From Actinomycetota bacterium (GTDB lineage Bacteria; Actinomycetota; Acidimicrobiia; IMCC26256; PALSA-555): a stretch of DNA of 34,584 bases. The notes under the pieces are model-generated. The model did not search any database. It saw nothing but the letters and a program-made list of their open reading frames with translations, and had not been told where the DNA came from. The stretch is taken from positions 1 to 34,584 of the forward strand of contig JBJSXO010000355.1 of NCBI GenBank assembly GCA_046086425.1, in the 5' to 3' direction. The translations under genes and the position numbers were made by a program. The number at the start of each line of letters is the position of its first letter. Position 1 is the stretch's first letter. Below, piece after piece: positions 5,478 through 29,184 of this stretch.

Positions 5478-5819
5478 ATGGACATCGAGCAGTTCTACGA
5501 CGCCGATCCCCGACGGCGTGCGTCCGAGGAGGTCGCCTTCGGGCACGAGTGGACCGACGCCGACGGCGGCCGTTACGAGGTCATGTGGGTGGCCGACACC
5601 GGCGAGGTCTACGCGATGTTCGAGCCCGTGGAGCCGATGGCCTCCGACGGGATCGGCGACATCTTTCCCCAGCACATGCCGACCGAGGCCGTGACCGTCG
5701 AGGTGCTCGGCGTTGTCGCCGACCGGGCGACCATCGACGCCGCGCTCGCCGGGTGGGCCGACGTCATGCCCCAGCCCGGCAGCGTCGCCTGGGTGCGCGA
5801 GCGCGTCGCCGGCGCCTGA
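5478..5819 (+). CDS. Hypothetical acidic protein (113 aa)
   Basis: MDIEQFYDADPRRRASEEVAFGHEW... has protein-like composition, and TAGGCT lies 7 nt upstream of the ATG. Confidence 0.75.
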   Translation: MDIEQFYDADPRRRASEEVAFGHEWTDADGGRYEVMWVADTGEVYAMFEPVEPMASDGIGDIFPQHMPTEAVTVEVLGVVADRATIDAALAGWADVMPQPGSVAWVRERVAGA

Positions 5820-5839
5820 GCCGTCGCCCCGGGGCACCG

Positions 5840-14450: not shown

Positions 14451-15596
14451 ATGAGCGACCAGCCGATGCGCGACTTCGCGGCCAACGCGCCGATGCCCGA
14501 GATGGGCGAGACGCCGTTCACGCCTCTCACCAAGGCCCTCTCGGAGTGCCGCGTCGCGATCGTCACCACCGCTGCGCTGCACACGCCCGACGCGGAGGGC
14601 TTCACGCCCGACGACGTGTCGTTTCGCGTGCTGCCCGCCGACCGGCGTGATCTCGTCCTCGGGCACTGGAGCCCGAACTTCGACCGTTCCGGCTTCGTCG
14701 CCGATCTCGACGTGGTGTACCCGATCGACCGGCTCGACGAGCTCGCGGCCGACGGAACCATCGGGAGCGTGGCCGCCCACCACTACTCCTTCGCAGGAAA
14801 CCAGGAGGACACGCTCGCCGGGATCCGCCTCGACACCGGACCGGCCGTGGCTCGCCGCCTGCGCGACGAGGACGTCGACGTCGTCCTGCTCACGCCCGTC
14901 TGACCGCTCTGCTCGCGCACCGTGTGTGTGCTCGCTCGCGTGCTCGAGGCGCATGGCCTCGCCACCATTGCGCTGATCTCGGTCCGCGGCGTCGCCGAGC
15001 GGCTCCCACCGCCGCGGGGCCTGTACTGCGAGTTCCCGCTGGGGCGGCCGTTGGGGCGGCCCGACGACCCCGAGTTCCAGCGGGCCGTGCTCCGGCGGGC
15101 CTTCGCCCTGCTGGAGCGCCACGACGGCCCGGTCCTCGAGGACTACCCGGTCGTGATCACATCGGACACGAGCGCGCTCGCGTGCCCGATGCCACCGCGC
15201 TTCGACGCGAACGTCCCCGAGGCCGTGGACGAGGCCCGGGGGCTACGCGCCGCGTACGACCGCACGCTCGCCCGCCGGGGCGTCACCTCCATCGGCCGCG
15301 TGCTCGACGCCGACCAGGTGCCCGACGCACTCGGGGTCCTTGCTGCGATCGCCGAGGGCGCCGACTGGAAGGACGCCGGCTTCGTCGGGGACCCCGTGCA
15401 GACCTGTCACGACATCCGCACCTACTACGAGGAGGCGGCTGCCGCGCTCGTGGACACGGTCCCGGCCGGGCAGGGGGAGTCGTGGTTCTACGAGCAGACC
15501 GCGGCCGGCCACACGATGCTCGCCGCACGCGCGCGCATGCGCGAGCAGGGCGCGCCGGTGATGATCTGGCTCTACATGGCCCGCGCCACCCGCTGA
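14451..15596 (+). CDS. Selenoprotein B-like protein (glycine/betaine/sarcosine/D-proline reductase selenoprotein B, PrdB/GrdB-like) with in-frame UGA (Sec151); 381 aa
   Basis: ATG 14451, TGA 14901-14903 and the downstream ORF 14922-15596 share one frame. Read-through gives DVVLLTPV-U-PLCSRTVCVLARVLEAHGLAT (UxxC). PrdB-like RVAIVTTAALH, DLDVVYPIDRLDELAADGTIG and FPLGRPLGRPDDPEFQRAVL motifs flank the UGA. Confidence 0.85.
14901..14931 (+). promoter_or_regulatory. Putative bacterial SECIS element
   Basis: Stem GCGCAC (14915-14920) pairs with GUGUGC (14926-14931). Loop CGUGU starts 18 nt after the UGA, with G at loop position 2. Folded by eye only. Confidence 0.55.
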
Positions 15597-15653: not shown

Positions 15654-16871
15654 ATGGACTTCGACGAGACCCCCGAGGAGATGGCGTTCCGCAGGGAATG
15701 CCGGGCCTTCCTGGAAGCCCACGCGCCCGCCCACGCCGACGACTCCGCCCCGGTCTCGGTCTACATCCGCGACCCGGCCGAGGAGCGCCGTCACCTGGCG
15801 CGTGCCCAGGCCTGGCGGGCCGAGAAGTACGACCACACCTGGGCCGGGATCACCTGGCCGGCCGAGTACGGCGGGCGGGGCGGCACACCCGGCCAGGACG
15901 CCATCTTCCGCAGCGAGGAGGCCCGGTTCCTCAGCACCGGCGGCGTGTTCGCGGTCGGCATCGGGATGGCCGGCCCGACGATCATCGCCCACGGCACCGA
16001 CGCGCAGAAGCAGCGCTTCCTGAAGCCGATGCTGCGCGGGGAGGAGGTCTGGTGCCAGCTGTTCTCGGAGCCCAACGCCGGCAGTGACCTCGGTGGCCTG
16101 TCCACGAGCGCGGCACGAGACGGTGACGAGTGGGTCGTGAACGGACAGAAGGTCTGGAACTCGGGTGCGCACTACTCCGACTGGGGCATCCTGCTGGCGC
16201 GCACCAACCTGGACGCCCCGAAGCACCGCGGCATCACCTACTTCCTCGTCGACATGCACTCGCCCGGCATCGAGGTGCGTCCGCTCCGGCAGATCACCGG
16301 GGCAGCCCACTTCAACGAGGTGTTCCTCGACGACGTGCGCATCCCCCACGCGCACGTGCTCGGGGAGGTCGACGGCGGCTGGGGCCCGATGATGACCACG
16401 CTCGCCACCGAGCGCACGCTGATCGGGAGCTCCCCGCGGAACGCGTTCCCGGCGACGATCGCGCTCGCCCGTCGGATGGGCGTGGCCGACGACCCCGTGA
16501 TGCGCCAGCGGCTGGCCCAGAGCTACACCCGCACCCGGATCCTCGAGTACCTCGGCTACCGCGTGCGGACGGCGGCCACCAAGGGCATCGCGCCGGGACC
16601 GGAGAGCTCGGTGATCAAGCTGTTCCTGTCGCAGCACCTGTCGCTCGAATCCGACATGCTCCTCGCGATGCTCGGGCCCCACGCCACGCTCTGGGACGCC
16701 GACGCGCCCGACGACGGGCGCGGGCAGATGGACTTCCTCGGCCAGTGGAACCCGAAGATCGGCGGGGGCACCGACCAGATCCAGCGCAACACGATCGGCG
16801 AGAAGGTCCTCGGCCTCCCGTCCGAGCCGCGGGTCGACAAGGGCATCCCGTTCCGCGAGATCCCGCGGTGA
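15654..16871 (+). CDS. Acyl-CoA dehydrogenase (FadE-like)
   Basis: WPAEYGGRG, WCQLFSEPNAGSDL, VNGQKVWNS, FNEVFLDDV and IGGGTDQIQRNTIGEKVLGLP. Confidence 0.95.
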   Translation: MDFDETPEEMAFRRECRAFLEAHAPAHADDSAPVSVYIRDPAEERRHLARAQAWRAEKYDHTWAGITWPAEYGGRGGTPGQDAIFRSEEARFLSTGGVFAVGIGMAGPTIIAHGTDAQKQRFLKPMLRGEEVWCQLFSEPNAGSDLGGLSTSAARDGDEWVVNGQKVWNSGAHYSDWGILLARTNLDAPKHRGITYFLVDMHSPGIEVRPLRQITGAAHFNEVFLDDVRIPHAHVLGEVDGGWGPMMTTLATERTLIGSSPRNAFPATIALARRMGVADDPVMRQRLAQSYTRTRILEYLGYRVRTAATKGIAPGPESSVIKLFLSQHLSLESDMLLAMLGPHATLWDADAPDDGRGQMDFLGQWNPKIGGGTDQIQRNTIGEKVLGLPSEPRVDKGIPFREIPR

Positions 16872-18061
16872 CCAGCGGTCACGACGGCGTCCGGGTCGCG
16901 GTGGGCCTGACCCGGCGGGCCGGCGGGCGGGTGCGGCGGACCGCCACGGTGACCTCACCGGCGCTGGGCGCCCCGGACCTGTGGGTCGAGGTCGACGAGG
17001 CCCACGCCGCCGAGGTCACGGACCGGGCCGACCCGTTCCTGCTCCTCACGCTCACACTGGCCATGCGGGAGGGCCGGGACCTCACGGTCACCGGGGCCCC
17101 GGTCGACGGGGAGCTGCTGCGCCGCCTGGTCGAGTTCCAGCGCATCTGGCACGCCTGGTTCGACCTGACGCCGGTGGAGGTCCACGCCGAGGCGAGCACC
17201 ACCCGCGGCGACCGCGACGCTGCGGTCGTCGCGTTCTCGGGGGGCGCGGACTCTGCGTTCAGCGCGTGGTCCCACACGGGCGGTCGCGGCCGGCAACCGC
17301 TACGGGGCGCGATGATGATCCACGGGATGGACGTCCCACTGTCGGACCCCGAGGGCTTCGCCCGGGCGATGGGCCGCGCTCGCCGGATGACCGACAGCCT
17401 GGACCTCGACCTCACCGTGGTGTCCACCAACGCGTGGACGCTGCCCGTGCCGATCAGGCAGTACACGGGGATGGGGGTGGCCGCGGCCCTCCACGTCCTC
17501 GGGGGCCGCTACGGGGCGGGCCTGATCCCCTCCACCGCGACCTACCGCGGTCTCGTCGTGCCGCTCAACAGCAGCCCGGTCAGCGACTGGCTGCTCGGGG
17601 GTGACGGATTCGCCATCGTCCACGACGGCGCGGCCGCGAACCGGTTCGAGAAGCTCACGGCCCTCTGCGCCTGGCCCGAGGCCATGGAGTCCCTCCGCGT
17701 CTGCCTCGTCGACCCGCGCCACGACCGCAACTGCGGCACCTGCCACAAGTGCATGATGACCCTCGCCGCCTTCCGGGTGCTCGGCGTCGACGCGCCGTGC
17801 TTCGACGCCGTGCCCTCGGCTGCGCAGTTCACCGACTGGGCCCGGCGCTGGCCGAGTGGCCGGTACCACCGGCAGGAGGGCCTGGTGCTGGTCGACGCGG
17901 CCCGGGAGCGCGGGGTGGACGAGCCCTGGGTGCGGGCGTTGCGCAACCGGATCCGGGTCGCGCAGCTCAAGGACGGCGTGCGCGCCGCGTGGCCCGGTCT
18001 GGCCGACGGCGTCGCGTCGGCCCATCGGCGGGTGCGGGCAATGGGCTCCCCCCGGGGCTGA
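16868..18061 (+). CDS. QueC-like PP-loop (adenine nucleotide alpha-hydrolase) protein with Cys-rich Zn site
   Basis: GTGA overlap with the ACAD stop; FSGGADS PP-loop; LRVC-x8-CGTCHKC; 397 aa with an N-terminal extension not present in canonical QueC. Confidence 0.75.
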   Translation: MTSGHDGVRVAVGLTRRAGGRVRRTATVTSPALGAPDLWVEVDEAHAAEVTDRADPFLLLTLTLAMREGRDLTVTGAPVDGELLRRLVEFQRIWHAWFDLTPVEVHAEASTTRGDRDAAVVAFSGGADSAFSAWSHTGGRGRQPLRGAMMIHGMDVPLSDPEGFARAMGRARRMTDSLDLDLTVVSTNAWTLPVPIRQYTGMGVAAALHVLGGRYGAGLIPSTATYRGLVVPLNSSPVSDWLLGGDGFAIVHDGAAANRFEKLTALCAWPEAMESLRVCLVDPRHDRNCGTCHKCMMTLAAFRVLGVDAPCFDAVPSAAQFTDWARRWPSGRYHRQEGLVLVDAARERGVDEPWVRALRNRIRVAQLKDGVRAAWPGLADGVASAHRRVRAMGSPRG

Positions 18062-20615
18062 CCCGACCACCCGCGCCCGCTCGGCGCAGGCACTCGTCGA
18101 GCCGGGCCGCGAGCACGTGCACGTGGGGCTCACCGATCATCGAGTCGTGGTCGCCCGGCACCTCGATGCACTCGATCCCCGCGGTCGCCACCCGGGCCCA
18201 CCCCAGGTCGGCCGATCCGGCCGTGCGGCGGACGGGCTCGGCGGAGAACACCGTCACCAGCGCAGGTGCGGGCCCGGGGGTGAACCCCCGCTCACGGGCG
18301 AACGCGGCCGCCCAGTCCAGGACCGCTCCGGTCCCGGGGAGGTGCTCGACCGGCCGGGGCGGGTTCCGCCCGAAGAGCTGGCGGACCCGCCACGCCACGA
18401 TGCTCGGGCCCCGGCGACTGCACAGCTTGCGCACCCGGTACCAGAGGGAGTGCCGCTGCGCCCACCGCGCCCGCACCAGATCGGGGTGGATGGCGTCGGC
18501 GATGCCGACGAACTCGACCGCGTGACCCTCGGCGGCGAGCCGGCACGCCGTCTCGTACGCCACCATCGCACCGAGCGAGTGCCCGAACAGGCGGTACGGA
18601 CCGTCGGGGGTCACCTCCCGCACCAGACGCGCGCAGGTCGTGGCGATCTCCTCGATCGAGCCGGCTGCGTCCGCGGGCCCGTGCATCGACGGCATCCACA
18701 CCCCGAAGACCGGCTGGTCCCGGCCCAGGGTCGCCGCGAGGTGGCGGAGCGTCACCACCGAGCCGGCCCGCATCACGCAGAAGAGCGGCGGCCGGGTTCC
18801 GTCGGGCTGCACCGGGACCACGAACGACGCCGACGGGTCCGCCGGCTCGGCCCGCAGCAGCGCCGCCATCCGGCGCACGGTCGCGCCGTCGAAGAACACG
18901 GTGGCCGGCAGCGGCCGGCCGAACGCCCGCTCGAGGTCGAGGAGCAGCTCGGTCGCGTGGAGCGAGTCACCCCCGAGATCGAAGAAGTCGGCGTCGATGC
19001 TCGGGAGCTCGTCGTCACCGAGCACCCGCTGCCAGATCGCGGCGATCTCCCGCTCGAGGTCGTCGGCGGGGGCGGCGCCCGGAGCCGCGCGCGTCGACGC
19101 GGTGAACCCGAGCCGGTCGGCGAGACCCGTCCGGTCGAGCTTGCCGGTCGCGCCCCGCGGGATCTCGTCGACGGCGACCACGCGTCGCGGCACCTTGTAG
19201 GGCGCGAGCCGCTCGGCCGCGTACCGGCGCAGCTGCGGTGCGGTGACGGTGGCGTTCGCCTCCAGTACGACCGCTGCGCCGACCTCCTCCCCCAACCGCG
19301 GATGGGGCACCGCGAACGCCACTGCGTGCTTCACCTGGGGATGGGTCAGCAGCACGTCGTCGATCGCGCGCGGGGCCACCTTCTCGCCGCCTCGGTTGAT
19401 GATCTCCTTGAGGCGACCGGTGAGCGTGACGACGCCGTCGGCGTCGACGAGCCCCTGGTCGCCAGTCCGGAACCAGCCGTCCTGGAACGCCGCCGCCGTG
19501 GCCTCGGGCGCGTCGAGGTACTGCGTCGCGACCGACGGCCCCCGGATCGCCAACTCCCCGACCGCACCCGGGGTGAGAACGCGCCCGTCCTCACCGAGGG
19601 CCACGACCTCGCAGCCGACCGCGCGGCCCACCGACCCTGGCGTGCGCACACCGGGTGGGCGGGCGTTGCTCGCGATCTGGTGCGCGGCCTCGGTCATCCC
19701 GTAGGCCTCGATCACCGGCACCCCGAGCACCCGCTCGAGCTCCTCCATCAGTCTCGCGGGCAACGGGGCCGACGAGGAGCGGACGAAGGTGAGCGACGAC
19801 CGGATCGGTCGATCCGCGGTTGCGCGCGGACGGCTGACGTCGAGCATCGCCTGGTGGATGGTGGGCACCGCGGTGTACCAGGTCGGTGACATCGTGTCGA
19901 TCCACTCCCACACCGACGCCGCGTCGAATCCCGGTGCGCAGATCACGCTGCCGCCCTGGCTCAGCGGCGCGAGCAGTCCGGCCACGAGGCCGTGGATATG
20001 GAACAGCGGCATTACGTCGAGACACCGGTCCCGGGGCGTGAGCCCGAGTGCGGCGGCCACGTTGGCGGCCGAGGCCACGAGCGCGTCCTCGCACAACGGT
20101 ACGAGCTTCGGGCGGCTCGTGGTCCCCGAGGTGAAGAGCAGGAGCGCAGCGTCACCCCGGTCACGCGATGGCGCAGGGGCCGGCGCGTCGTCGGGCACGA
20201 CCAGGTCGAAGGCCCCGGCCCCCGCACCGGGAACCAGCTCGAGCACCGGGATGCGCAGCGCCGTCGCCGCGTCGCGAGCGGCCGTGTCGTGACCCTGCTG
20301 GACGATCACGGCGCGCGCCCCCAGGGCCTCGAGATCACGCGCGTGCTCCGCCTGGGGTCGGTCGGTCGCGAGGGGGGCGCACACTGCAGCCGCCGTCACG
20401 CCGAGGAACGCCACCGCGAGGTCGGCCCCGTTGGGCAGGGCCAGCGCAACCGGCGCGTCGGGCCCCAGACCGGCGGCGCCGAGGCGGTCCCCCACCCCCA
20501 CCACCTGATCGAACAGCTCGCGGTGCGTCGCGTCGCGACGTCCCGGCGCCAGGAGCGCAGGTTGGTCACCGGACGACGTCGCGCCGGCGCGCAGCAACTC
20601 GAGGAGCGACGCCAT
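17967..20615 (-). CDS. NRPS-like A-T-TE enzyme (acyl-CoA-ligase-type adenylation domain + carrier protein + thioesterase)
   Basis: A domain: FTSGTTSRPK, MPLFHIHG, EAYGMTE, FRTGD, GRLKEIINRGGEK, PRGATGKL. Carrier: FFDLGGDSL. TE: FGHSLG and VPGDHDSM. ATG 20615; 882 aa. Confidence 0.9.
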   Translation of the reverse strand: MASLLELLRAGATSSGDQPALLAPGRRDATHRELFDQVVGVGDRLGAAGLGPDAPVALALPNGADLAVAFLGVTAAAVCAPLATDRPQAEHARDLEALGARAVIVQQGHDTAARDAATALRIPVLELVPGAGAGAFDLVVPDDAPAPAPSRDRGDAALLLFTSGTTSRPKLVPLCEDALVASAANVAAALGLTPRDRCLDVMPLFHIHGLVAGLLAPLSQGGSVICAPGFDAASVWEWIDTMSPTWYTAVPTIHQAMLDVSRPRATADRPIRSSLTFVRSSSAPLPARLMEELERVLGVPVIEAYGMTEAAHQIASNARPPGVRTPGSVGRAVGCEVVALGEDGRVLTPGAVGELAIRGPSVATQYLDAPEATAAAFQDGWFRTGDQGLVDADGVVTLTGRLKEIINRGGEKVAPRAIDDVLLTHPQVKHAVAFAVPHPRLGEEVGAAVVLEANATVTAPQLRRYAAERLAPYKVPRRVVAVDEIPRGATGKLDRTGLADRLGFTASTRAAPGAAPADDLEREIAAIWQRVLGDDELPSIDADFFDLGGDSLHATELLLDLERAFGRPLPATVFFDGATVRRMAALLRAEPADPSASFVVPVQPDGTRPPLFCVMRAGSVVTLRHLAATLGRDQPVFGVWMPSMHGPADAAGSIEEIATTCARLVREVTPDGPYRLFGHSLGAMVAYETACRLAAEGHAVEFVGIADAIHPDLVRARWAQRHSLWYRVRKLCSRRGPSIVAWRVRQLFGRNPPRPVEHLPGTGAVLDWAAAFARERGFTPGPAPALVTVFSAEPVRRTAGSADLGWARVATAGIECIEVPGDHDSMIGEPHVHVLAARLDECLRRAGAGGRVSPGGSPLPAPADGPTRRRRPDRATRRARRP

Positions 20616-20625
20616 CGGGAGGAGT

Positions 20626-21606
20626 CTACGAACGGGTCCGGAGACGGCGGCGCAGATCCTCGAGCCGCCCGGTCGCGTCCCCCACTGCTGCGGCCGGGTC
20701 GGCGCCGTGGCGCAAGCGCCACGCCGGGAGCCGGGCCAGCGCGCCGCATACGCCGAACAGGTCGGGACGGACATCGGCGTCCACGAGCGCGAGGCTGGCC
20801 CCGAGCAGCTCGCGCATCACGTCGGGACCGGGCAGCGGGGTGACCCCCGGGCCGTCGGCCGAGCCACCCGAGGTGACGGCGACCGCGACCACCGGGCGCT
20901 CCCCGGAGGCGAGCGTCCCGGGCGGGAGCTCGACGCGCTGGCGCAGGTCCTCGGGCACGCCCCGGCCCCCGGCGATCGACCCGGCGACCACGTCGGCTGC
21001 GACCGCCACGGGTCGGGGTACGCCGCGCGCGAGCACGCGGTCGTCCCGACGCTCGAGCAGCACCGCGTCGTCGGCGAGCACGGGCCAGCCGAGCAGGTGC
21101 GCAGCGTACGCAAGTGTCGACTTCCCCGTCCCCGTGCCGCCCACCACGAGCAGCACTGCGTCGTCGACGACCAGCGCCGCACCGTGGAGCAGGTGGCGCC
21201 CCCGCCGGGCGAGCACGTGGGTGAGGCAGACCAGCGCGACGAACCGGAACTCCCGAGCGAGGCCGGGCGCGTCACCCCCCACCACGATGGCGTGCGGCGT
21301 GCACCGCGCGGTGAGCCCGGCGGAGCTGCGGACCGCGAGCTCCCCCGGGCCCGTCCACCAGAGGTCGACGTAGTCGAGGGCACGATCGGGGTCACGGTCC
21401 GGCACCGCAACCGCCGCCGCGTCGAAGCGAAGGTGGCACGCCGGCGCGCCGGCCACAGTGGCTGCGTGACGGAAGAGCGACGCCCCCGCGTCGGCCCGCA
21501 CCCCGTCGGCGGCACCGAGCCCGACGGGGACACCGCCGACCTCCACCACGGTGCCGGCGCGTACGTCGGCCGCGTCGACCTCCGCGACGGAGGGCGGTCC
21601 GCTCAC
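20626..21606 (-). CDS. HPr kinase-like P-loop kinase (RiPP/lasso-cluster type)
   Basis: LLHGAAL...VGGTGTGKSTLA...VLADDAVLL. GTG 21606 overlaps the upstream stop (GTGA); 326 aa. Confidence 0.85.
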   Translation of the reverse strand: MSGPPSVAEVDAADVRAGTVVEVGGVPVGLGAADGVRADAGASLFRHAATVAGAPACHLRFDAAAVAVPDRDPDRALDYVDLWWTGPGELAVRSSAGLTARCTPHAIVVGGDAPGLAREFRFVALVCLTHVLARRGRHLLHGAALVVDDAVLLVVGGTGTGKSTLAYAAHLLGWPVLADDAVLLERRDDRVLARGVPRPVAVAADVVAGSIAGGRGVPEDLRQRVELPPGTLASGERPVVAVAVTSGGSADGPGVTPLPGPDVMRELLGASLALVDADVRPDLFGVCGALARLPAWRLRHGADPAAAVGDATGRLEDLRRRLRTRS

Positions 21607-23159
21607 CGGCGCGCCCCCGCACCGAGACGCCGGGCCAGCCGGACGGCCCCGGCCACGGTCGTCCGGGGAACCCGCTGCACCGCCCCGGCGGCGGGACCCC
21701 AGCGCACATACGGTCGCGACGGGGAGACGGCCGTCACCCGGCCGATGAGCGCCGACGGCGCGACCGGCGGGTCGGCGCGCACGCAGGTATCCCCCTGGAA
21801 CCGGTGCCGGGCGCCTACCGCGCCCCGGTGCCGGTGCACCACGATCTCTCCCTGCGGGCCGCAGAACGCCCACACTTCTCCGCGCGCCGGTCCGGTCGCC
21901 CGGGCCTCGATCCGCACGCGGGTGCCGCTCGGGAGCGACCAGCCCATCGACCGGCCTGACACGTCCAGCCACAGCGGCTCCTGCTCGGCCCGGGTCCGGA
22001 GGAGTCGCGCGGTGGCGTCGGCGTCGCAGTGCGGCGCGGGCCTCGGGTCGCCGGTGATCCGTGCCCGCAACGCAGCACGCCGCCGGTGCATCGTGCGGAC
22101 CCTCCCGCGCAGCAGGCGCACCGGATAGGGCCCGGGCAGGTCGGCGTACCAGACCGCGACCGCGGCCGGCGGCGGGACCGGGACTCGCCTGGTGGCGCCG
22201 ATCGCGTCGCGGAGCCGACCCCGCACGAGGAAGGGCAGCGCCTCCTGGCGGCGCGAGCGGGCCGTGCCCGCACTACCGAGCAGGGTCACGCGCTCGGGCC
22301 AGACGGCTCGCCACACCCGCGCGCGTGGCCCCGAGGGGACCGGTCCCGCGGGTCCGCTGAGACCGAGCGCGGCGGTGACCCGTGCCCGCGCGCCGGCCAC
22401 GATGATGTCGAGCCCCTCGGCGCGCGTGTAGCGATCGACGAACCCCCAGTCGATCTCCTCGCGCGCGAGGACGCGCGCGACGTCGGCGTAGCCGAGGAGC
22501 GCGGGGAAGCTGTCCTTGTTCATGTGCACGAGGAAGTGGACGAGCGCAACCTCGGGGTCGAGCACCCGCACCGAGGACCCATCCGGCAACTCGTGCCCAC
22601 GGGTCCGCTCCCACACCAGGTCGGGCCGACGCGCCGGGAACCCGAGCTTGTAGAGGTCGAGGTGGAGGTCGACCGGCACCCCGTCGACCCGTGCGCCCAC
22701 GGACTGCAGCACGTTGACGCGGGCCAGGGCACCGGCGTCGGTCCCGAGCGGATGGCCCGGTGCGAGCACGGCGAGGATCTCGTCGAGGCGGCGGGCCGCG
22801 CCCGGCTCGAGCAGGACGTCGACGTCGGTGCACGGCCGTTCCCCCCTGCGCCGGTACCACCGGGCCTCGGCGGTGACCCCCTTGATCGCAGCGACCTCGA
22901 CCCCGATCGCCGCAAGGTCGTCGCGCACCCGCACCAGGGCCGCCTCGAGCCGGCCGTGGCGGTGGCGGACCGCGGCGTCGAGGCCTGCGAGCCGCACGCG
23001 CGCGGGGGCGTCGGGCGCGTGCTCGCGCACCCAGCTCCACAGCAGGCCCGTCATCCCGTGGCCGTTCGCGGCGTCGACGAGGCCGTCGTCGCCGTGCGGG
23101 AACACGCCGGGCGCGCGACCGGCCGCCAGATCCAGGAGCGCCGGATGGGGTCGGGTCAC
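21603..23159 (-). CDS. Nucleotidyltransferase (NTP_transf_5-like) fused to a C-terminal S24/S26 signal-peptidase-like domain
   Basis: N-terminal part: AIKGV...R.CTDVDVLL, VDLH, PEVALVHFLVH. C-terminal part (~22020-21603): VSGRSMGW...GEVWAF...VVHR...FQGD...DPPV...LIGRV. Confidence 0.82.
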   Translation of the reverse strand: MTRPHPALLDLAAGRAPGVFPHGDDGLVDAANGHGMTGLLWSWVREHAPDAPARVRLAGLDAAVRHRHGRLEAALVRVRDDLAAIGVEVAAIKGVTAEARWYRRRGERPCTDVDVLLEPGAARRLDEILAVLAPGHPLGTDAGALARVNVLQSVGARVDGVPVDLHLDLYKLGFPARRPDLVWERTRGHELPDGSSVRVLDPEVALVHFLVHMNKDSFPALLGYADVARVLAREEIDWGFVDRYTRAEGLDIIVAGARARVTAALGLSGPAGPVPSGPRARVWRAVWPERVTLLGSAGTARSRRQEALPFLVRGRLRDAIGATRRVPVPPPAAVAVWYADLPGPYPVRLLRGRVRTMHRRRAALRARITGDPRPAPHCDADATARLLRTRAEQEPLWLDVSGRSMGWSLPSGTRVRIEARATGPARGEVWAFCGPQGEIVVHRHRGAVGARHRFQGDTCVRADPPVAPSALIGRVTAVSPSRPYVRWGPAAGAVQRVPRTTVAGAVRLARRLGAGARR

Positions 23160-23180
23160 GGCGGGGATGGGCGCCCGGGC

Positions 23181-23459
23181 TCAGCCGGCGATGCCGTCGC
23201 CCGGCACGACGAGCCCCGCGGCCTCGACCTCGTCGAGGAACGCGGCGATGTCCCGGGCCACGGTCTCGACGGGGACGTCGTCGAACCGGTCGGCGAGATC
23301 CGCCGCCAGCTCCGCTGGCCCCCGCTGCCCGTCGAGGGCCAGCCAGACCAGGGTGCCGACCTCGTTCAGGGTGAGCAGCTCCTCGCCCCGGGGGTCGACG
23401 AGCACCGCCTGACCGTCGACGACCTCGGAGACGACTCGGGGCGACCGCTGCCACGCCAT
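23181..23459 (-). CDS. PqqD-family RiPP recognition element (RRE)
   Basis: 92 aa: VVDGQAVLVD...LLTLNEVGTLVWLALDG...LADRFDDVPVETVARDIAAFLDEVEAAGLV, the characteristic stand-alone PqqD pattern. Confidence 0.92.
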   Translation of the reverse strand: MAWQRSPRVVSEVVDGQAVLVDPRGEELLTLNEVGTLVWLALDGQRGPAELAADLADRFDDVPVETVARDIAAFLDEVEAAGLVVPGDGIAG

Positions 23460-23465
23460 CGGGTC

Positions 23466-23471
23466 AGGTTA
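23466..23471 (-). promoter_or_regulatory. Putative -10 box (TAACCT) of a leaderless pqqD-operon transcript
   Basis: TANNNT hexamer 6 nt upstream of ATG 23459, with no SD. Confidence 0.55.
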
Positions 23472-23526
23472 GGCCCCGGGATGCGGGCCCCGGGACGAGA
23501 ACCGCCGGTCCGGTGCCGCCCGGACC

Positions 23527-23607
23527 TATCATTCGGGGCCGGCGTCGAGGACCCCGAAGCGCCGGGGACCGTCGAAGACCATCACCACCCACGAAGACGA
23601 CTGGGAG
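23527..23607 (+). promoter_or_regulatory. Putative -10 (TATCAT, 23527-23532) and SD (GGGAG, 23603-23607) for the small peptide gene
   Basis: AT-rich hexamer in otherwise very GC-rich DNA; GGGAG lies 5 nt before ATG 23613. Confidence 0.5.
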
Positions 23608-23612
23608 CAGCA

Positions 23613-23699
23613 ATGCGCTACGAGCCACCGACCATCGTGCGCCGGGACCGGCTCGCCGGCCTTCTCATCGCCAAGAGCGACATCCCCGCCCCCACCTGA
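23613..23699 (+). CDS. Putative RiPP precursor peptide, 28 aa: MRYEPPTIVRRDRLAGLLIAKSDIPAPT
   Basis: SD-preceded ATG, an N-terminal YxxP(xI) RRE-binding motif, and a position divergent from the PqqD gene. The ORF track shows it only as the tail of shadow ORF 22029..23699. Confidence 0.75.
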   Translation: MRYEPPTIVRRDRLAGLLIAKSDIPAPT

Positions 23700-23729
23700 G
23701 CTCGATCATCTGAGCTCGATCATCTGAGC
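23696..23729 (+). repeat. Tandem repeat of CTGAGCTCGATCAT (14 bp x 2.4)
   Basis: Exact copies at 23696-23709 and 23710-23723, plus CTGAGC at 23724-23729; overlaps the precursor stop codon. Confidence 0.9.
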
Positions 23730-23947: not shown

Positions 23948-26900
23948 ATGACGACATCGCCCGCGCCGACCGTGCCGGCGTGGCAATTCGAGCTCGCGGT
24001 GGAGGACGATGCCGACGGCAACGCCTCGCCCGAGCAGCACTCCCTCCTCGAGGCCGACCGGCCCCGCTGGCAGGCGACCCTCAACACGTTGCTGCGGGCC
24101 GCCGAGCAGCACCTCGCCGCCGCCCGCCGACTCCAGGGCCCCGAGCGAAGCCAGGTCCTCGCCGATGCCGAGGCCGACCGCCAGCGCCTCCTCCTCGCGT
24201 GGTCCCGGCTGACCGGCATCGAGATCGAGGTCACGGCCCCCCGCGCCGGCGCGTCGGGCCCGGCCGAGCGCGAACCCGACGCCGACAGCCTCGCGCCCGC
24301 CGTCGTCGCGCTCCAGGTCTCGTGGGAGCCGGGACGGGTGGTCGCCTGGGCCGGCGGCCCCCGCTGCGAGCCGGGCGCGGCCGCCGCGGTTCTCGCGATG
24401 CTCGCGGAGGCCGAAGCCCCCGAGGCGCCGTGGACCCCCCACGCAGGCGTGACGCTCCCCGACGGCGGGCGCGCCGAGGCGTTCAGCGCGCCCGTGGGTG
24501 AGGTGCTCGGCTGGCTGGTGGCCGCCGGCGCCGGCCAGGTCGACGCCGAGGTCGGGGCCAGCGTCCGGTGGCTCGGCCGGGTCGCGATCTGGGCGGTCGA
24601 GCTCACCGCCCGCGGCGCCATGGTGCCGCTCCTCCGCCAGCGGCGGAAACGCAACGGGAGCAGCCGCAGCACCTCCGCGTCGTACTCCGTGCGCTGGACG
24701 CCGGCGCTCGTCGACGCCGACCGACTGGCCGACGTGGTCGCCGCGATGCCCGGCAGCGTGCGCGCCCTCGACACCCGCGTCGACGCCCGCGCGCTGACCC
24801 GCTCGGCCCTCACCGGGATGGTCGACGCCATCTGCCGGGACAGCGCGCGTCGCATCGAGGTGCCCGCACCCCCGCCCGTGGTGCGCTCGGCCACCGACGT
24901 CACCGAAGCCTTCCTCGCCCGCCTCGACGGCAGCGCGTTCGACGCACCGATGCGGGTCGCCGACGACCTCGTCACCAAGGCCGAGCGTTGGGCGCGCGGC
25001 GTGACGCGTGAGCAGCGTCCCCTGCTCGTCCGGCTCGAGGCCCCGCCCGCCGGTGACCCGGCCTGGGACCTCGCCGTGTTCGCCCCGAGCCCCGACGGCA
25101 CCCTCGTCCCGATCGAGCGGGCCATCGTCGACGCGCGCAGCGAGCGTGCGGAGCTCGAGGACGAGATCGGGCGCATCGAGCGCATGGTCCCGGCGCTCGC
25201 CCGCCCGAGCACACGCCGCGGGCACACCGTCGTCGACCAGGCGGAGGCGTGGGAGCTGATGGTCGACATCGGGCCGCGTCTGGCGGCCGCGGGGTTCGCC
25301 GTGCAGGTCCCGGCGCTCAGCCTGCGCCGGCCCGCGCCGTCGCTGCGGGTGTTCGCCGAGCAGACCGAGACCGCGGTCGGCGCGAGCCAGCTCGCCGACG
25401 TCCGGTGGTCGGCAGTGTTCGACGACGTCGAGCTCACCGCCGCCGACATCGCCCGGCTCGCCCGGGAGGCCCGGCCGCTGATCCACTCGCGTGGCCGCTG
25501 GGTCGCGCTCGACAAGGCCGACCTCGACGCCGCGGCCGCGGCCCTCGCGGAGCGGGCCCAGACCACCCAGCTCTCCGGGGCCGACATGCTGCGCCTCGCG
25601 CTCGGCCTCGACGGATCGCCGCTGGCCGGCGGCATCACGGTGGCGGGCGGCGGCTGGGCGGCGGAGCTGCTCGCGGCGGCGGCCGCGGTGGACGGCACCC
25701 CTGCGACCGAGCCCGACGGCTTCGTCGGGGAGCTGCGCACCTACCAGGCCGACGCGCTGGCGTGGCTGGGCTTCCTCGAGTCGGCCGGCATCGGCGGCTG
25801 CCTCGCGCTCGACATGGGGCTCGGCAAGACCCCCACGATGCTCGCGCACCTCACCGAGGCCGCCGACCGGGGGCCGGCCCTGGTGATCGCGCCTCCTGCG
25901 GTCGTCGGCAACTGGGCGTCCGAGGCCCACCAGTTCGTCCCCGGCCTGCGGGTCAAGGTCCACCACGGGGCCAACCGGGCCGACGCCGACGAGATCGCCG
26001 CCGAGGTGGCGGGCGCCGACGTCCTCCTCACCACCTACGGCACCGCGGTGCGCGACATCGAGGCCATCGAGAAGGTGGACTGGGCGACGCTCGTGCTCGA
26101 CGAGGCCCAGGCGATCAAGAACGTCGCCAGCGACACCGCCCAGCAGCTCCGGCGGATCCCGGCCCGCGTGCGCGTCGCGCTCACCGGCACGCCCATCGAG
26201 AACGGCCTCGGTGATCTCTGGGCCATCCTCGACTTCACCAATCCGGGGCTCGTCGGCCCCCGGCCCCAGTTCGTCGCCAGCCTGTCGGGCGACGAGTCGT
26301 CCAAGGCCCAGTCCGCGGAGCACGCGCTCCGCGCGCTCAACGGCATCCTGGTCTTCCGGCGGACCAAGGCCGAGCCGGCGATCGCGGCCGAGCTGCCCGA
26401 CCGCATCGACGAGCTCGACCACTGCTCGATGACACCGGAGCAGATCGGCCTCTACCAGGCCGTGCTCGACAAGCTCGTGCTCACCACCGATCTTCCCGAC
26501 GGCGAGGAGCCCCGCAAGGGCCAGATCCTCGCCGCGATCACCGCGCTCAAGCAGATCTGCAACCATCCGGCGGCGTACCAGGATGACGACGGGCCGCTCG
26601 GGGGCCGGTCCGGAAAGCTCGCGCGCCTCGAGGAGATCGTGGACATCGTCTACGCGGCGGGCGAGCGCGTCCTGATCTTCACGCACTTCGCCGAGTGGGG
26701 CATGAAGCTCGCCACCCATCTCACCGAGCACACCGGCACGCCGGTGGAGTGCTACCACGGCGGCCTCTCCCGGACCGCGCGCGACAAGATCATCGAGGAC
26801 TTCCAAAACGGTGAAGGCCCGGGCGCGCTGGTGCTGTCGCTGAAGGCCGGCGGGACGGGCCTGAACCTCACCGCCGCGAACCACGTCGTGCTCTACGACC

Positions 26901-27202
26901 GGTGGTGGAACCCCGCGGTGGAGGACCAGGCGCGCGACCGCGCGTGGCGCATCGGCCAGACCCACACCGTCATCTGCCACCGGCTGGTGTGCCCGGGCAC
27001 CGTCGACGAGCGGGTCGAGGAGGTCGTCGAGGGCAAGCGTCGCATCGCCGATCTCGTCCTGCCCAAGTCGAGCTCGCTCGCCGACCTCGACCAGGCGCAG
27101 CTGAGCATGGCCCTGGGCATCCGCCCCGACGCCCTGCTCACCGAGGACGTCGCCGATCTCGGCGCCACCCCGCCCGATCCCGGCGAGGAGGCCGCCGCAT
27201 GA
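23948..27202 (+). CDS. SNF2-family (DEAD/DEAH-box) helicase/ATPase
   Basis: LRTYQ, LDMGLGKT, VLDEAQAIKN, ALTGTPIENGL, LKQICNHP, SLKAGGTGLNLT and DRWWNPAVEDQARDRAWRIGQ. Confidence 0.95.
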   Translation: MTTSPAPTVPAWQFELAVEDDADGNASPEQHSLLEADRPRWQATLNTLLRAAEQHLAAARRLQGPERSQVLADAEADRQRLLLAWSRLTGIEIEVTAPRAGASGPAEREPDADSLAPAVVALQVSWEPGRVVAWAGGPRCEPGAAAAVLAMLAEAEAPEAPWTPHAGVTLPDGGRAEAFSAPVGEVLGWLVAAGAGQVDAEVGASVRWLGRVAIWAVELTARGAMVPLLRQRRKRNGSSRSTSASYSVRWTPALVDADRLADVVAAMPGSVRALDTRVDARALTRSALTGMVDAICRDSARRIEVPAPPPVVRSATDVTEAFLARLDGSAFDAPMRVADDLVTKAERWARGVTREQRPLLVRLEAPPAGDPAWDLAVFAPSPDGTLVPIERAIVDARSERAELEDEIGRIERMVPALARPSTRRGHTVVDQAEAWELMVDIGPRLAAAGFAVQVPALSLRRPAPSLRVFAEQTETAVGASQLADVRWSAVFDDVELTAADIARLAREARPLIHSRGRWVALDKADLDAAAAALAERAQTTQLSGADMLRLALGLDGSPLAGGITVAGGGWAAELLAAAAAVDGTPATEPDGFVGELRTYQADALAWLGFLESAGIGGCLALDMGLGKTPTMLAHLTEAADRGPALVIAPPAVVGNWASEAHQFVPGLRVKVHHGANRADADEIAAEVAGADVLLTTYGTAVRDIEAIEKVDWATLVLDEAQAIKNVASDTAQQLRRIPARVRVALTGTPIENGLGDLWAILDFTNPGLVGPRPQFVASLSGDESSKAQSAEHALRALNGILVFRRTKAEPAIAAELPDRIDELDHCSMTPEQIGLYQAVLDKLVLTTDLPDGEEPRKGQILAAITALKQICNHPAAYQDDDGPLGGRSGKLARLEEIVDIVYAAGERVLIFTHFAEWGMKLATHLTEHTGTPVECYHGGLSRTARDKIIEDFQNGEGPGALVLSLKAGGTGLNLTAANHVVLYDRWWNPAVEDQARDRAWRIGQTHTVICHRLVCPGTVDERVEEVVEGKRRIADLVLPKSSSLADLDQAQLSMALGIRPDALLTEDVADLGATPPDPGEEAAA

Positions 27203-27540: not shown

Positions 27541-29184
27541 TCAACCGTCGTCCGACACCATGCCTGCGTCGACCCGCAGCACGCGGTCGAAGGCCACGGT
27601 GTCGAGCAGCCGGCGGTCGTGGGTGACCAGCAGGACCGTGCCGGGGAACTCCGCCAGCGCCTGCTCGAGCTGCTCGATCGCCGGCAGGTCGAGGTGGTTC
27701 GTCGGCTCGTCGAGGACCAGCGTGTTGACCCCGGTGGTCTGGAGGAGCGCGAGCGCAGCACGGGTGCGCTCCCCCGGCGAGAGCATCGCCGCGGGCCGCT
27801 CGACGTGCGCGGCGCCGAGCCCGAACTTGGCCAGGACGCTGCGGGCGTCGCTGATCGTCACCCCCGTCGCCGCGATGAACGCGTCGACCAGCGCGGTCGT
27901 CCCGGCAAACGTGGCCCGGGCCTGGTCGATCTCGCCGACCACCACGCCGGGGCCGAGCCACTGCGTCCCCGCGTGCAGTTCGACCCGGCCGAGCAGGGCA
28001 TCGAGCAACGTGGACTTCCCGGCACCGTTGGGACCGACGATGCCCACCGTCTCCCCCCAGCCGATCTCGAGGGTCACCGGGCCGAGCGAGAAGCGGTCGC
28101 GCGCCACCACCGCCTGGTCGAGGCGCGCCACGACCGCGCCGGCGCGGGGGGCGCACGCAATGGAGAACTGCAGCTCCCACTCCTCCCACGGCTTCTCTAC
28201 GACCTCGAGCCGCTCGAGCGCGCGCTCGCTGCGCCGGGCTCGCGACGCAAGTTGCTCGGTCTGCTCCTTGCGGAAGCCCCGCCCGGCACGATCGGCGTCC
28301 TTCGGGCTCGCTTTGCCCTTGGCGACCCCACGGTGTGCCCACTCCCGCTCGCGCTGGGCCCGGGCGGTGAGCGCGCCACGCTGGCCCTGGTACTCCTCGT
28401 ACGCGGCCTCGGCACGCCGTCGGGACACGTCGCGCTCACGCAGGTACGCCGAGTACCCACCCGCGAACGTCGTGATCGTGTGGTCGTGCGCGTCCAGATC
28501 GGCGACGTCGGTGACGACCCGGTCGAGGAACGCGCGGTCATGGCTCACCACGACCAACGGTCCCGTGAACCCGAGCGCGAAGCGCTCGAGCTGGTCGAGA
28601 CCGTCGAAGTCGAGGTCGTTCGTCGGCTCGTCGAGCAACAGGACGTCGAAGCGCGCCAGCAAGATGGCGGCCAGCCCGACCCGCGCGGCCTGACCTCCCG
28701 AGAGCGTGGGCATCGTGGCGTCGAGCAGCGAGCCGGCCGCGAGCCCGAGCGTCTGCACCACCTCACCGGCACGAGCGTTGAAGTCGGCCGCCCCGAGCGC
28801 CAGCCACCGTTCCAGCGCCGCGCTGTAACGGTCGTCGGCACCCTCGGCACCGTCGGCGAGCGCAGCCGTCGCCGCGTCGAGCGCGTCCTGCGCGTCGGCG
28901 ACACCGGTCCGGCGCGCAAGGTAGGCCATGACCGACTCACCCGCCCGCCGCTCCGGCTCCTGGCGCAGCTCACCCACGGTCGCCGTCGGCGGCGCCGTCT
29001 CCACCGACCCGGACTCGGGGTGCAGCCGGCCCGCGAGAACGCCGAGGAGCGTCGACTTCCCCGAGCCGTTGGGCCCGAGGACGCCGAGACGCTGGCCGGG
29101 CGGGACCACGAGGTCCACGTCCTCGAGCACGGGGTGGGGGCCGTAGGCGAAGGTGACGCCCCGGGCTCGCAGCGTCGCCGGCAT
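27541..29184 (-). CDS. ABC-F family ATP-binding protein
   Basis: Two ABC domains (GPNGSGKST/LSGGQ/LLDEPTND and GPNGAGKST/LSPGE/VLDEPTNH), an interdomain linker, and no TM segments. Confidence 0.93.
   Translation of the reverse strand: MPATLRARGVTFAYGPHPVLEDVDLVVPPGQRLGVLGPNGSGKSTLLGVLAGRLHPESGSVETAPPTATVGELRQEPERRAGESVMAYLARRTGVADAQDALDAATAALADGAEGADDRYSAALERWLALGAADFNARAGEVVQTLGLAAGSLLDATMPTLSGGQAARVGLAAILLARFDVLLLDEPTNDLDFDGLDQLERFALGFTGPLVVVSHDRAFLDRVVTDVADLDAHDHTITTFAGGYSAYLRERDVSRRRAEAAYEEYQGQRGALTARAQREREWAHRGVAKGKASPKDADRAGRGFRKEQTEQLASRARRSERALERLEVVEKPWEEWELQFSIACAPRAGAVVARLDQAVVARDRFSLGPVTLEIGWGETVGIVGPNGAGKSTLLDALLGRVELHAGTQWLGPGVVVGEIDQARATFAGTTALVDAFIAATGVTISDARSVLAKFGLGAAHVERPAAMLSPGERTRAALALLQTTGVNTLVLDEPTNHLDLPAIEQLEQALAEFPGTVLLVTHDRRLLDTVAFDRVLRVDAGMVSDDG

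Follow-up and report, generated by a model that had tools for sequence, protein, structure and literature searches.

A putative gene cluster for a linear, leader-dependent peptide of the LPP type in a freshwater Acidimicrobiia-like actinobacterium

What is the product of a gene cluster that carries the precursor recognition, kinase and transferase functions of certain lasso peptide pathways but no lasso cyclase? This question is raised by a stretch of 34,584 nt (contig JBJSXO010000355.1 of assembly GCA_046086425.1; hereafter the window, with positions counted from its first letter), in which four co-oriented genes lie next to a divergent gene for a 28-aa peptide with a YxxP leader. The initial annotation had proposed a distinct linear class of RiPPs (peptides made on the ribosome and modified after translation), in which the core is phosphorylated, nucleotidylated and possibly acylated, and the leader is cut by an S26 peptidase. 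The present analysis indicates that the locus probably is a biosynthetic gene cluster for a leader-dependent, linear (non-lasso) modified RiPP of the linear polyphosphorylated peptide (LPP) type in a freshwater Acidimicrobiia-like host. It is a variant of the published LPP family and not a new class; new are the phylum, the fusion of transferase and peptidase, two extra carboxylate-activating enzymes, and tandem precursors with a conserved tryptophan end. In favour of this reading are homology, the conservation of both catalytic residues and synteny, and a complex prediction that passed, while the chemistry ascribed to the pathway throughout is transferred from homologues.

The window corresponds to contig C355 of an assembly of 2.7 Mb (404 contigs, 82.4% complete, 72-77% GC). 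The region is contained in freshwater metagenome runs, and the closest named relatives of the window proteins are found in metagenome-assembled genomes (MAGs) of Acidimicrobiia. On the minus strand, genes follow each other in the order PqqD-family protein (a discrete RiPP recognition element, RRE; 92 aa, 23181..23459), NTP_transf_5-S24/S26-fold fusion (518 aa, 21603..23159), HPr-kinase-like P-loop kinase (326 aa, 20626..21606) and adenylation-thiolation-thioesterase protein (A-T-TE; 882 aa from the ATG at 20615, 17967..20615). The gaps of 21, -4 and 10 nt reported initially agree exactly with the coordinates: the fusion gene starts with GTG 21 nt after the TGA of the PqqD gene, its own TGA overlaps the GTG (21606) of the kinase-like gene by 4 nt (GTGA), and the ATG at 20615 lies 10 nt past the end of the latter (20626). 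GC content at third codon positions (GC3) is 0.90-0.94 in the frames of all four genes. A spacer of 153 nt separates the PqqD gene from the open reading frame (ORF) of the peptide on the opposite strand (23613..23699, +), which has a GGGAG site 5 nt ahead of its ATG and GC1/2/3 values of 0.68/0.54/0.93. Since homologous small ORFs adjoin homologous clusters at many loci, it is not a chance frame, and the peptide gene postulated earlier is real. Position 23729, formerly given as the end of the system, is the end of a 14-nt tandem direct repeat (two copies and a partial third, 23697..23729) that begins within the stop codon of the peptide ORF, which itself ends at 23699. The earlier inventory was right in its four enzymes. 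It overlooked a gene for a QueC-family PP-loop ATPase of QatC-like architecture (397 aa, 16868..18061, +), the multi-unit precursors of relatives and the shortened unit of the window itself.

LPPs, for which a literature search turned up only the work of Popov et al. (Nat Commun 2026; PMC13381572), are specified by clusters such as lppA-K-B-S-D-N of Paenibacillus alginolyticus. As described there, the LPP core comprises an RRE, a kinase resembling HprK, an NTP transferase, a signal peptidase I of archaeal type and a precursor with a YxxP leader, without a cyclase. LppK adds up to four phosphates to Ser3 of the core, LppS cuts only together with LppB and requires S29, H68 and D93, and deletion of LppN was without effect, no activity of LppN being reported (PMC13381572). 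With this gene set published in May 2026, the linear, cyclase-less RRE/kinase/nucleotidyltransferase (NTase)/S26 pathway of the initial annotation is supported, whereas its designation as a distinct class does not hold. The window shares with LPP clusters, as published (PMC13381572), the discrete RRE, the YxxPx[V/I] leader, the HprK-like kinase, the NTP_transf domain, a Ser/His/Asp leader peptidase and the lack of a cyclase and of a B2 protease, the likeness of peptidase and kinase to LppS and LppK being set by the published description and not by direct sequence comparison. Precursors of window relatives reach about 150 aa and thus stay within the LPP range of 35-200 aa (PMC13381572). Differences concern the host, LPPs being restricted to Bacillota according to their authors' Discussion (PMC13381572) whereas the window clusters occur in Actinomycetota (Acidimicrobiia-type MAGs); the leader, which has about 16-18 residues in the window family compared to 27 in LppA; and export, LPP clusters carrying an MsbA-like pump that is missing from the window while related Acidimicrobiia loci have ABC-2 pumps. 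The second half of the LPP leader motif (HQxIxFET) is not shared, save for an aliphatic residue at equal distance from the Tyr (PMC13381572). Moreover, transferase and peptidase form one fused protein in the window, and the window family adds a conserved A-T-TE, a QueC-family gene and tandem leader-core units.

A second point of reference is given by lasso peptides of the paeninodin and pseudomycoidin types, in which an HPr-kinase homologue is described to phosphorylate a Ser of the linear precursor and, in the case of pseudomycoidin, an NTP_transf_5-type enzyme transfers hexoses to the phosphate (PMC8498205). Those systems possess both a cyclase of the Asn-synthetase-like kind and B2, a cysteine protease, and phosphorylate the C-terminal Ser (PMC8498205); the window has neither enzyme, and its conserved Ser is internal. 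In some lasso clusters of Firmicutes, the transferase and the leader peptidase B2 are fused (PMC8498205), a parallel to the transferase-peptidase fusion of the window. The main texts of RRE-Finder (PMC7470986) and of a 2025 RRE paper (PMC12710340) contain no mention of a kinase, a nucleotidyltransferase or a signal peptidase.

At its C terminus the fusion protein has a signal-peptidase-I-like domain of the S24/S26 fold, which comprises 148 residues (371-518; 21606..22049, -). Residues G402, S404, M405, H442, R443, G456, D457 and D463 are invariant in 22 full-length relatives, and the elements Gly-x-Ser-Met and Val-His-Arg and the last Asp were still conserved when 12 more fused or free-standing copies were added. 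The AlphaFold model of the domain (mean predicted local distance difference test, pLDDT, 82) retrieved with Foldseek the C-terminal domains of lambda cI and LexA, SEC11A/C from the human signal peptidase complex, and SpsB as best matches. Among 13 relatives, six match the archaeal-type signal peptidase I model TIGR02228 (best E 5.5e-9), four match SipW, and all 13 match PF00717 at E values up to 5. It is these relatives, the conserved residues and the fold that assign the window domain to the S26 type. Replacement of the Lys of bacterial S24/S26 enzymes by His is a mark of the archaeal-type subtype, and this agrees with the triad of LppS; the putative triad Ser404/His442/Asp463 has spacings of 38 and 21 residues versus 39 and 25 in LppS (PMC13381572). 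With this predicted Ser/His/Asp domain the fusion protein appears to provide the leader peptidase that characterizes LPP clusters.

A complex of the RRE, the peptidase domain and the 28-aa peptide was predicted with a score of 0.66 (runs 0.63, 0.66 and 0.75; best control 0.30). In a benchmark in which all chains had at least 30 residues and alignments other than those used here, 58 of 80 solved complexes attained this mark, as did 2 of 110 mismatched pairs. The runs share at least 50% of contacts, with a partner pLDDT of at least 74. Predicted contacts connect peptide residues 10, 12 and 14-21 with residues 26-36, 68-72 and 86-93 of the peptidase domain, which hold the Ser, His and Asp, and the first strands of the RRE with the helix preceding the peptidase core. 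Part of the score may reflect likeness to known structures, as solved RRE-leader complexes exist. The prediction supports, without showing it, an RRE-assisted cleavage near peptide residues 16-21. In the proposed pathway, the small RRE protein would bind the YxxPxI motif at the extreme N terminus of the precursor, and the Ser404/His442/Asp463 domain would remove the leader thus presented by a cut near these residues.

Assignment of the PqqD protein as an RRE is based on PF05402 (E 7.7e-18), which passes the Pfam threshold. Its Asn32 and Asp70 are invariant in 19 relatives and correspond to N33 and D70 of LppB, which hold the Pro and Tyr of the leader in the crystal structure (PMC13381572). Together with the YxxP leader, an RRE of this type (B1) is also a feature of lasso clusters; the lasso RRE model NF033530 yielded 40.6 bits, under its cut-off of 70, and the NCBIfam model 'HPr-rel-A system PqqD family peptide chaperone' (TIGR04353) 19.8 against a cut-off of 35. 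The HPr-rel-A system of NCBIfam pairs an HprK-like kinase with a PqqD-family protein, as does the window, and 'HprK-related kinase A' (TIGR04352) is the top model for the window kinase (35 versus a cut-off of 200 bits). When a profile of 18 kinase relatives was compared to the PDB, HPr kinase (1jb1/2qmh) ranked first with E 1e-6, the match covering the P-loop and the following Asp-Asp. All 18 kinases match TIGR04352 and TIGR04355 (HprK-related kinases A and B), every one below cut-off. The enzyme would phosphorylate the Ser of a conserved Ser-Asp located a few residues past the leader. In the related locus L031 (loci and genomes are designated by L and G numbers), the kinase frame (5589-6539) contains one in-frame stop, which is real in that metagenome contig, and this row was left out of the kinase alignment; PqqD is missing from L031 as well, and upstream of its QueC-like gene lies an HNH/DUF222 gene.

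The NTP_transf_5 domain of the fusion protein (22398..23087, -) matches PF14907 with E 4.5e-24 and 85.8 bits (cut-off 31.2) over residues 25-254 of 518, and 22 fusion proteins share D112, D114 and D164/H166/D168 without exception. Among the matches listed, about 35 of 120 homologues are of the same length with the C-terminal domain covered, five of them with a precomputed PF00717 match. By analogy the transferase domain would decorate the phosphate. For the nucleotidylated core postulated at the outset nothing was found in favour: LppN is described as inactive (PMC13381572), and the pseudomycoidin homologue adds hexoses (PMC8498205).

The window precursor MRYEPPTIVRRDRLAGLLIAKSDIPAPT consists of a single leader unit, YxxPxI...R..L.GLL, and a short core with one Ser-Asp motif; beginning with M-R-Y-E-P-P-T-I, it displays the YxxPx[V/L/I] signature of LPP clusters. 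Precursor-like ORFs with the same leader were found at 25 non-redundant loci. This leader is short (about 16-18 residues), begins 1-8 residues ahead of the Tyr and hence almost at the initiator, and reads Tyr-x-x-Pro-x-aliphatic, followed by a stretch that is basic or acidic; position Tyr+11 is aliphatic, and Tyr+13 is in most cases Gly or Ala, with x-Leu next. The core is hypervariable from clade to clade. Precursors of the window clade are tandem leader-core arrays in one stop-free frame. L005 (146 aa), L026 (147 aa) and L027 (141 aa) have three units each, L031 (94 aa), L048 (99 aa) and L070 (103 aa) have two, and there are at least three in L054, whose precursor is interrupted by the contig end. 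Each tandem unit has the leader motif and a first Ser-Asp, the Asp of which mostly lies nine residues past the conserved Gly/Ala at the leader end, then a variable linker and the conserved end Ser-Asp-x-x-x-Lys-x-Asn-x-x-Pro-Val-x-Trp. The motif SD..K.N..PV.W closes every unit in L005, L026, L027, L048 and L070; in L031 four residues follow the last one. In L068 (5627-7100), an RRE-peptidase-NTase-ABC locus with the kinase 6 kb off, a JmjC/cupin-type gene adjoins three precursor-like units.

Conservation of the cluster was assessed by two collection scans, which retrieved 21 and 49 loci. After near-identical copies had been merged, 11 lineages with the fusion remained (the window; L005; L006/L030; L007; L008/L009/L032/L033; L026/L054; L027; L028/L029; L031; L034; L041). 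The kinase follows the fusion in nine of the 11 (not in L006/L030 or the L008 group), PqqD is found upstream in six of nine informative lineages, and the QueC-like gene is adjacent in seven of 11. An A-T-TE lies downstream in eight of nine informative lineages; the exception is L006/L030 with 955 nt of downstream sequence, and L028/L029 and L034 end too early. The neighbourhood check suggested in the initial annotation came out in its favour, with YxxP ORFs and the A-T-TE both recurring. More distant Acidimicrobiia loci (L015, L020-L025, L058, L068 and others) contain a free-standing peptidase, a kinase, an RRE, an NTase, an ABC ATPase and an ABC-2 permease, with at least one precursor ORF just behind the peptidase gene. 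Of 301 sampled genomes of the class, 20 match a profile of the peptidase domain at E <=1e-8. Nine of the 301 do so strongly (E 5e-29 or better), including five of the six genomes of the window's genus, while the 11 weak matches, whose frames have 168-553 aa, may represent S24 proteins of other kinds. The distribution is patchy across at least five families.

Several observations weigh against an LPP-type assignment of the window cluster, in addition to the calibration range of the complex score given above. The peptidase domain of the window on its own gave no significant family match (PF00717 E 0.14-0.28, no NCBIfam model), so that the initial label 'S26 peptidase' is upheld by relatives, residues and fold while the window copy itself goes unrecognized by PF00717. 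The window kinase alone matches PF07475 with E 6.6e-4 and TIGR04352 with E 1.2e-8, both under the curated cut-offs. The solved RREs nearest to the window RRE are those of the actinobacterial lasso proteins TfuB1 and TbiB1 (20.9 and 19.4 bits), followed by LppB (9x8z; 16.3 bits, a weak match with E 0.079); because the RRE is nearer to lasso RREs, the resemblance to the Bacillota LPPs may stem from common descent or from parallel assembly out of lasso parts. No membrane-domain transporter was detected among the scanned window ORFs with Pfam or NCBIfam, the sole ABC protein being an ABC-F. At the chromosomal site of the window (SNF2 helicase to acyl-CoA dehydrogenase), the lineage L008/L009/L032/L033 has kept only the fusion and the A-T-TE, without PqqD, kinase, QueC-like gene or precursor. 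The window peptide lacks the C-terminal SD..K.N..PV.W motif of its relatives. Three QueC-like loci of another layout (L063, L064 and L082) are without an A-T-TE, and the QueC-like gene is missing in four of eight other genomes with a strong match to the peptidase domain; as each is absent from some loci or genomes, neither the A-T-TE nor the QueC-like enzyme is obligatory for the family.

These last points bear on the two enzymes that the window has in addition to the LPP set. In the 935-aa frame of the A-T-TE, PF00501 (AMP-binding), PF13193 (AMP-binding_C), PF00550 (PP-binding) and PF00975 (Thioesterase) all pass their Pfam thresholds. The adenylation domain (~19140-20582), the carrier with GGDS (~18855-19049) and the thioesterase with GHSLG, that is GxSxG (from ~18788), are present in one protein, as in a non-ribosomal peptide synthetase (NRPS)-like A-T-TE. 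Over its entire length the adenylation domain can be aligned with oxalate-CoA ligases of plants and yeast (358 bits for 5ie0, Arabidopsis AAE3; 341 and 313 bits), all other solved families scoring at most 219 bits (next family about 200), and the best NCBIfam model is the mycobacterial FadD7 family (440 bits versus a cut-off of 650). Unlike oxalate-CoA ligase and FadD7, to which it is similar over its full length, the window domain is fused to a carrier and a thioesterase; acyl loading would therefore be on its own phosphopantetheine and not on CoA. No prior description of an oxalate-ligase-like adenylation domain fused to carrier and thioesterase turned up in a literature search. Based on the likeness to oxalate-CoA ligases and the co-occurrence with the cluster, our guess is that the A-T-TE loads oxalate or a similar small acid and transfers it to the peptide; acylation of the peptide, already considered in the initial annotation, is suggested by this co-occurrence, and a small acyl group would probably be what is transferred. 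Another kind of thiotemplate enzyme accompanies the RiPP core in L024 (1342-6946), where a C-A-T-TE NRPS (1408 aa) and a phosphopantetheinyl transferase are encoded 2-3 kb from a free-standing RRE-kinase-peptidase cassette.

The QueC-like gene is convergent with the A-T-TE gene and overlaps it by 95 nt (17967-18061; 8 nt in L005, L027 and L054). The protein matched no Pfam or NCBIfam model (PF06508 with E 1 and 9.3 bits, restricted to the zinc-motif stretch). S120, G122 and D124 of the PP-loop motif SGGxDS and C275, C285, C288 and C291 of a C-terminal four-Cys zinc motif, both hallmarks of QueC, are invariant in 27 relatives. Its predicted structure (pLDDT 92.8) is most similar to QatC (9y01_B; Z 15.3, root-mean-square deviation (rmsd) 4.7, 300 residues aligned over model positions 1-357), followed by QueC (3bl5; Z 12.6, rmsd 3.3, 178 aligned) and Cap9 (9nto_B; Z 12.3, rmsd 3.1, 169 aligned), with the remaining PP-loop enzymes at Z <=10.9. 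Like QatC it has N- and C-terminal extensions round the QueC core, and it shares the SGGxDS PP-loop and four-Cys zinc motif with QatC and Cap9. It differs from QatC in sequence (14% identity), in the missing PF06508 match and in its setting in a RiPP cluster, and its zinc motif C-x9-C-x2-C-x2-C is closer to canonical QueC than to QatC. The motifs YxQxHxxE, VPxRN and YPDC of canonical enzymes, as listed in PMC13329287, were not seen on reading the sequence and its conserved columns, a comparison made without a residue-level structural alignment. QueC converts a carboxylate via an amide to a nitrile with ATP, and Cap9 (by inference also QatC) attaches 7-carboxy-7-deazaguanine to a partner protein at its N-terminal glycine, as reported in PMC13279940 and PMC13329287. 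Such deazaguanylation was considered for the window enzyme and is not favoured: canonical QueC and QueD were found in one (G002) of five cluster-bearing genomes, which are incomplete or of unknown completeness, and their absence from the other four makes a deazaguanine substrate unlikely. In the pathway proposed here, the enzyme would probably act as an ATP-dependent carboxylate ligase that forms an amide, either at a carboxylate or at the N terminus newly created. Among the matches listed in a literature search for a QueC in a RiPP pathway, none mentions QueC.

Presence of the QueC-like gene tracks an early Ser/Thr-Asp motif of the core. After near-identical loci (L023, L029, L030, L032, L033, L050, L051, L054 and L073) had been dropped, [ST]D occurred within the first 14 core residues in 20 of 20 units from 11 loci with the gene, compared to 5 of 20 units from 14 loci without it. 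Four of these five units stem from short window-type contigs (L010, L059 and L070) that end before the usual place of the gene, leaving 1 of 16 units in 11 informative loci; the loci are related and not independent, and the pattern is to be taken as a lead and not as a statistic. A further-reaching proposal, which we regard as tentative and hold to be possible at best, is that the cluster represents a new LPP-type subclass in which tandem precursors are phosphorylated on Ser-Asp and tailored by a QatC-like ligase and an A-T-TE transferring an oxalyl-like group, both new to RiPPs. In such a subclass, the ligase would tag the freed N terminus, as do Cap9 and QatC, or activate the conserved Asp; in the latter case it could even stand in for the lasso cyclase, which also belongs to the PP-loop enzymes, and form a ring between the conserved Gly and the Asp mostly 8-10 residues further on.

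Alternatively, the A-T-TE, the QueC-like enzyme or both might act outside the peptide pathway on a small molecule and merely be adjacent to it, which we consider unlikely. In line with such a separation, RRE, peptidase and QueC-like gene are found together without an A-T-TE in the loci of other layout L063, L064 and L082 (with a kinase in L063 and L082), L008, L009 and L033 retain fusion and A-T-TE without RRE, kinase and precursor, and the adenylation domain is nearest to an oxalate-CoA ligase of primary metabolism. The GTG of the QueC-like gene and the TGA of the acyl-CoA dehydrogenase gene upstream of it overlap (GTGA, 16868-16871), which suggests co-translation with a metabolic gene; this dehydrogenase is, however, also present in L009 and L033, where the QueC-like gene is absent, and is therefore chromosomal context. 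Against a separation of the A-T-TE stands its position after the fusion or kinase genes in all but one informative lineage and in varied chromosomal settings, with a gap of only about 10 nt in the window. As for the QueC-like enzyme, it belongs to a small family of 55 proteins at E <=1e-3, all of which lack a Pfam domain and several of which come from contigs equal in length to those of fusion homologues, its presence follows the Ser/Thr-Asp motif of the core, and its gene invariably lies beside the kinase or the A-T-TE gene. This applies even to a system split over two loci: in G136, a genome of the L008 group, and in G080 of the same genus, kinase and QueC-like gene are located on other contigs (L080 and L081), in G136 (L080) with a precursor ORF beside them; a lone PqqD gene is found on a further contig.

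About as doubtful is the possibility that the window copy is decaying and non-productive, with the 28-aa ORF as a truncated remnant. The window copy could be heading for decay since its sister lineage has lost four components at the same site; between helicase and fusion gene of L009 no remnant of PqqD or precursor was found, an unrelated minus-strand gene being located there. The end of the window peptide ahead of the conserved tryptophan motif and the 14-nt tandem duplication on its stop codon point in the same direction. No remnant of the missing motif was detected downstream of the peptide in the three plus-strand frames up to the helicase gene. These signs are set against five intact enzyme frames with conserved catalytic residues, and against an ORF that retains its ribosome-binding site and coding-type composition. 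In contigs of runs X2 and X3, which represent two further samples from the same study, ORF, stop codon and 14-nt repeat show 0 differences, and the L007 peptide, likewise a 28-aa single unit that stops ahead of the conserved Trp end, is encoded beside a full cluster. In addition, the same genome (G000) contains on contig C198 an orphan 61-aa ORF, MAPETPTETRYAPPRIVTRDRLDGLLFTPKSDPGGMVSDAHLKEHVTPVVWAHDSGDGARP (1198-1380, +; locus L079), with a GAGGAG site and a GC3 of 0.95. It represents one complete unit with leader, Ser-Asp, C-terminal Ser-Asp...Pro-Val-Val-Trp and a 10-residue tail, and the physiological substrate may include it. Its neighbours are housekeeping genes (nitroreductase, old-yellow-enzyme-type reductase, GlnE, NAD synthase), and its only counterpart in five genomes of the same genus is the in-cluster precursor of G196. 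The fusion gene of L031 has a long N-terminal frame, in which no PqqD domain was found; this extension looks non-coding.

The window might also be part of an ordinary split lasso cluster with cyclase and B2 encoded elsewhere in the genome. Lasso rings span 7-9 residues, and in the listed units a distance of mostly 8-10 residues separates the Gly/Ala at the leader end from the Asp in the Ser-Asp motif. The assembly is incomplete, the RRE is closest to lasso RREs, and the nearest non-fused NTase homologues (43-46% identity; L043, L045, L047 and L013) sit in lasso clusters with Asn_synthase, Transglut_core3 and PqqD, L013 adding an HprK-like gene and a classical lasso precursor. The cyclase-less system hence has lasso cousins in the same phylum, a kinship which mirrors that reported for Bacillota (PMC13381572). 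A split lasso cluster is nonetheless very improbable. The absence of lasso machinery noted initially was upheld by searching the whole assembly at its estimated completeness: for the B2 protease, PF13471 reached at best 16.9 bits (cut-off 26), and for the cyclase, PF00733 gave only two PP-loop-only matches (28 and 21.7 bits), the weaker of which is NAD synthase. In the Pfam-scanned loci L005, L007, L021, L023, L024, L025, L027 and L031, flanks of up to 10 kb in each direction showed no cyclase. Furthermore, a dedicated leader peptidase of different fold is present in fused form, and the published homologous system is reported to give linear products (PMC13381572). The lasso clusters L013, L043, L045 and L047, as well as L012, are themselves of interest, as they combine an ABC pump with NTP_transf_5 on Nitriliruptoraceae-type and other actinobacterial contigs, L043 with NeuB and a cytidylyltransferase nearby; this suggests, as judged from gene content, that phosphorylated and perhaps sugar-decorated lasso peptides occur outside Firmicutes and Proteobacteria.

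Equally remote is a protein-modification or defence module in which the QatC-like enzyme tags a small partner at its N terminus, in the manner of QatABCD or type IV CBASS (cyclic-oligonucleotide-based antiphage signaling system): QatC is the best fold match over the whole length of the PP-loop protein, QatC and Cap9 are reported to modify N-terminal glycines of partners while a conserved Gly occurs at the leader end, and the next gene encodes an SNF2-family helicase, but an RRE, a YxxP leader, a leader peptidase and hypervariable cores are hallmarks of RiPPs, the canonical QueC and QueD needed for a deazaguanine substrate were found in only one of five cluster-bearing genomes, the helicase is chromosomal context common to loci without most of the cluster, and among the ORFs scanned in the window and related loci no QatA (KAP NTPase), QatD (TatD nuclease), CD-NTase or Cap10 was seen beside the QueC-like gene; for QatB, which has no Pfam model, such a scan gives no answer.

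The genes flanking the cluster were inspected as well. The helicase, next gene beyond the peptide, carries DUF3670 and matches the NCBIfam SCO1167/SCO6262 family below cut-off. Helicase (23948-27202) and ABC-F gene (27541-29184) are chromosomal neighbours; the ABC-F protein scored 365.9 (cut-off 380) with the NCBIfam model for ribosomal-protection-like ABC-F. On the other side, between genes for a short-chain dehydrogenase/reductase and the acyl-CoA dehydrogenase, a conserved 224-aa protein without family match is encoded (14922-15596), which is 75-76% identical in L009 and L033.

Taken as an LPP-type system, the window clusters extend a biosynthetic core known in print since 2026 to a second phylum. 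Compact in layout, they also supply two candidate partner enzymes, which is of interest in view of the missing partner enzyme outside the LPP core cluster that was suspected by the authors of the LPP study (PMC13381572). If the QueC-family enzyme acts on the peptide, the protein-tagging chemistry of QueC enzymes in phage defence would be linked to natural-product biosynthesis. Finally, the tandem leader-core precursors constitute a natural test bed for the action of one RRE and one signal-peptidase-like enzyme on repeated units.

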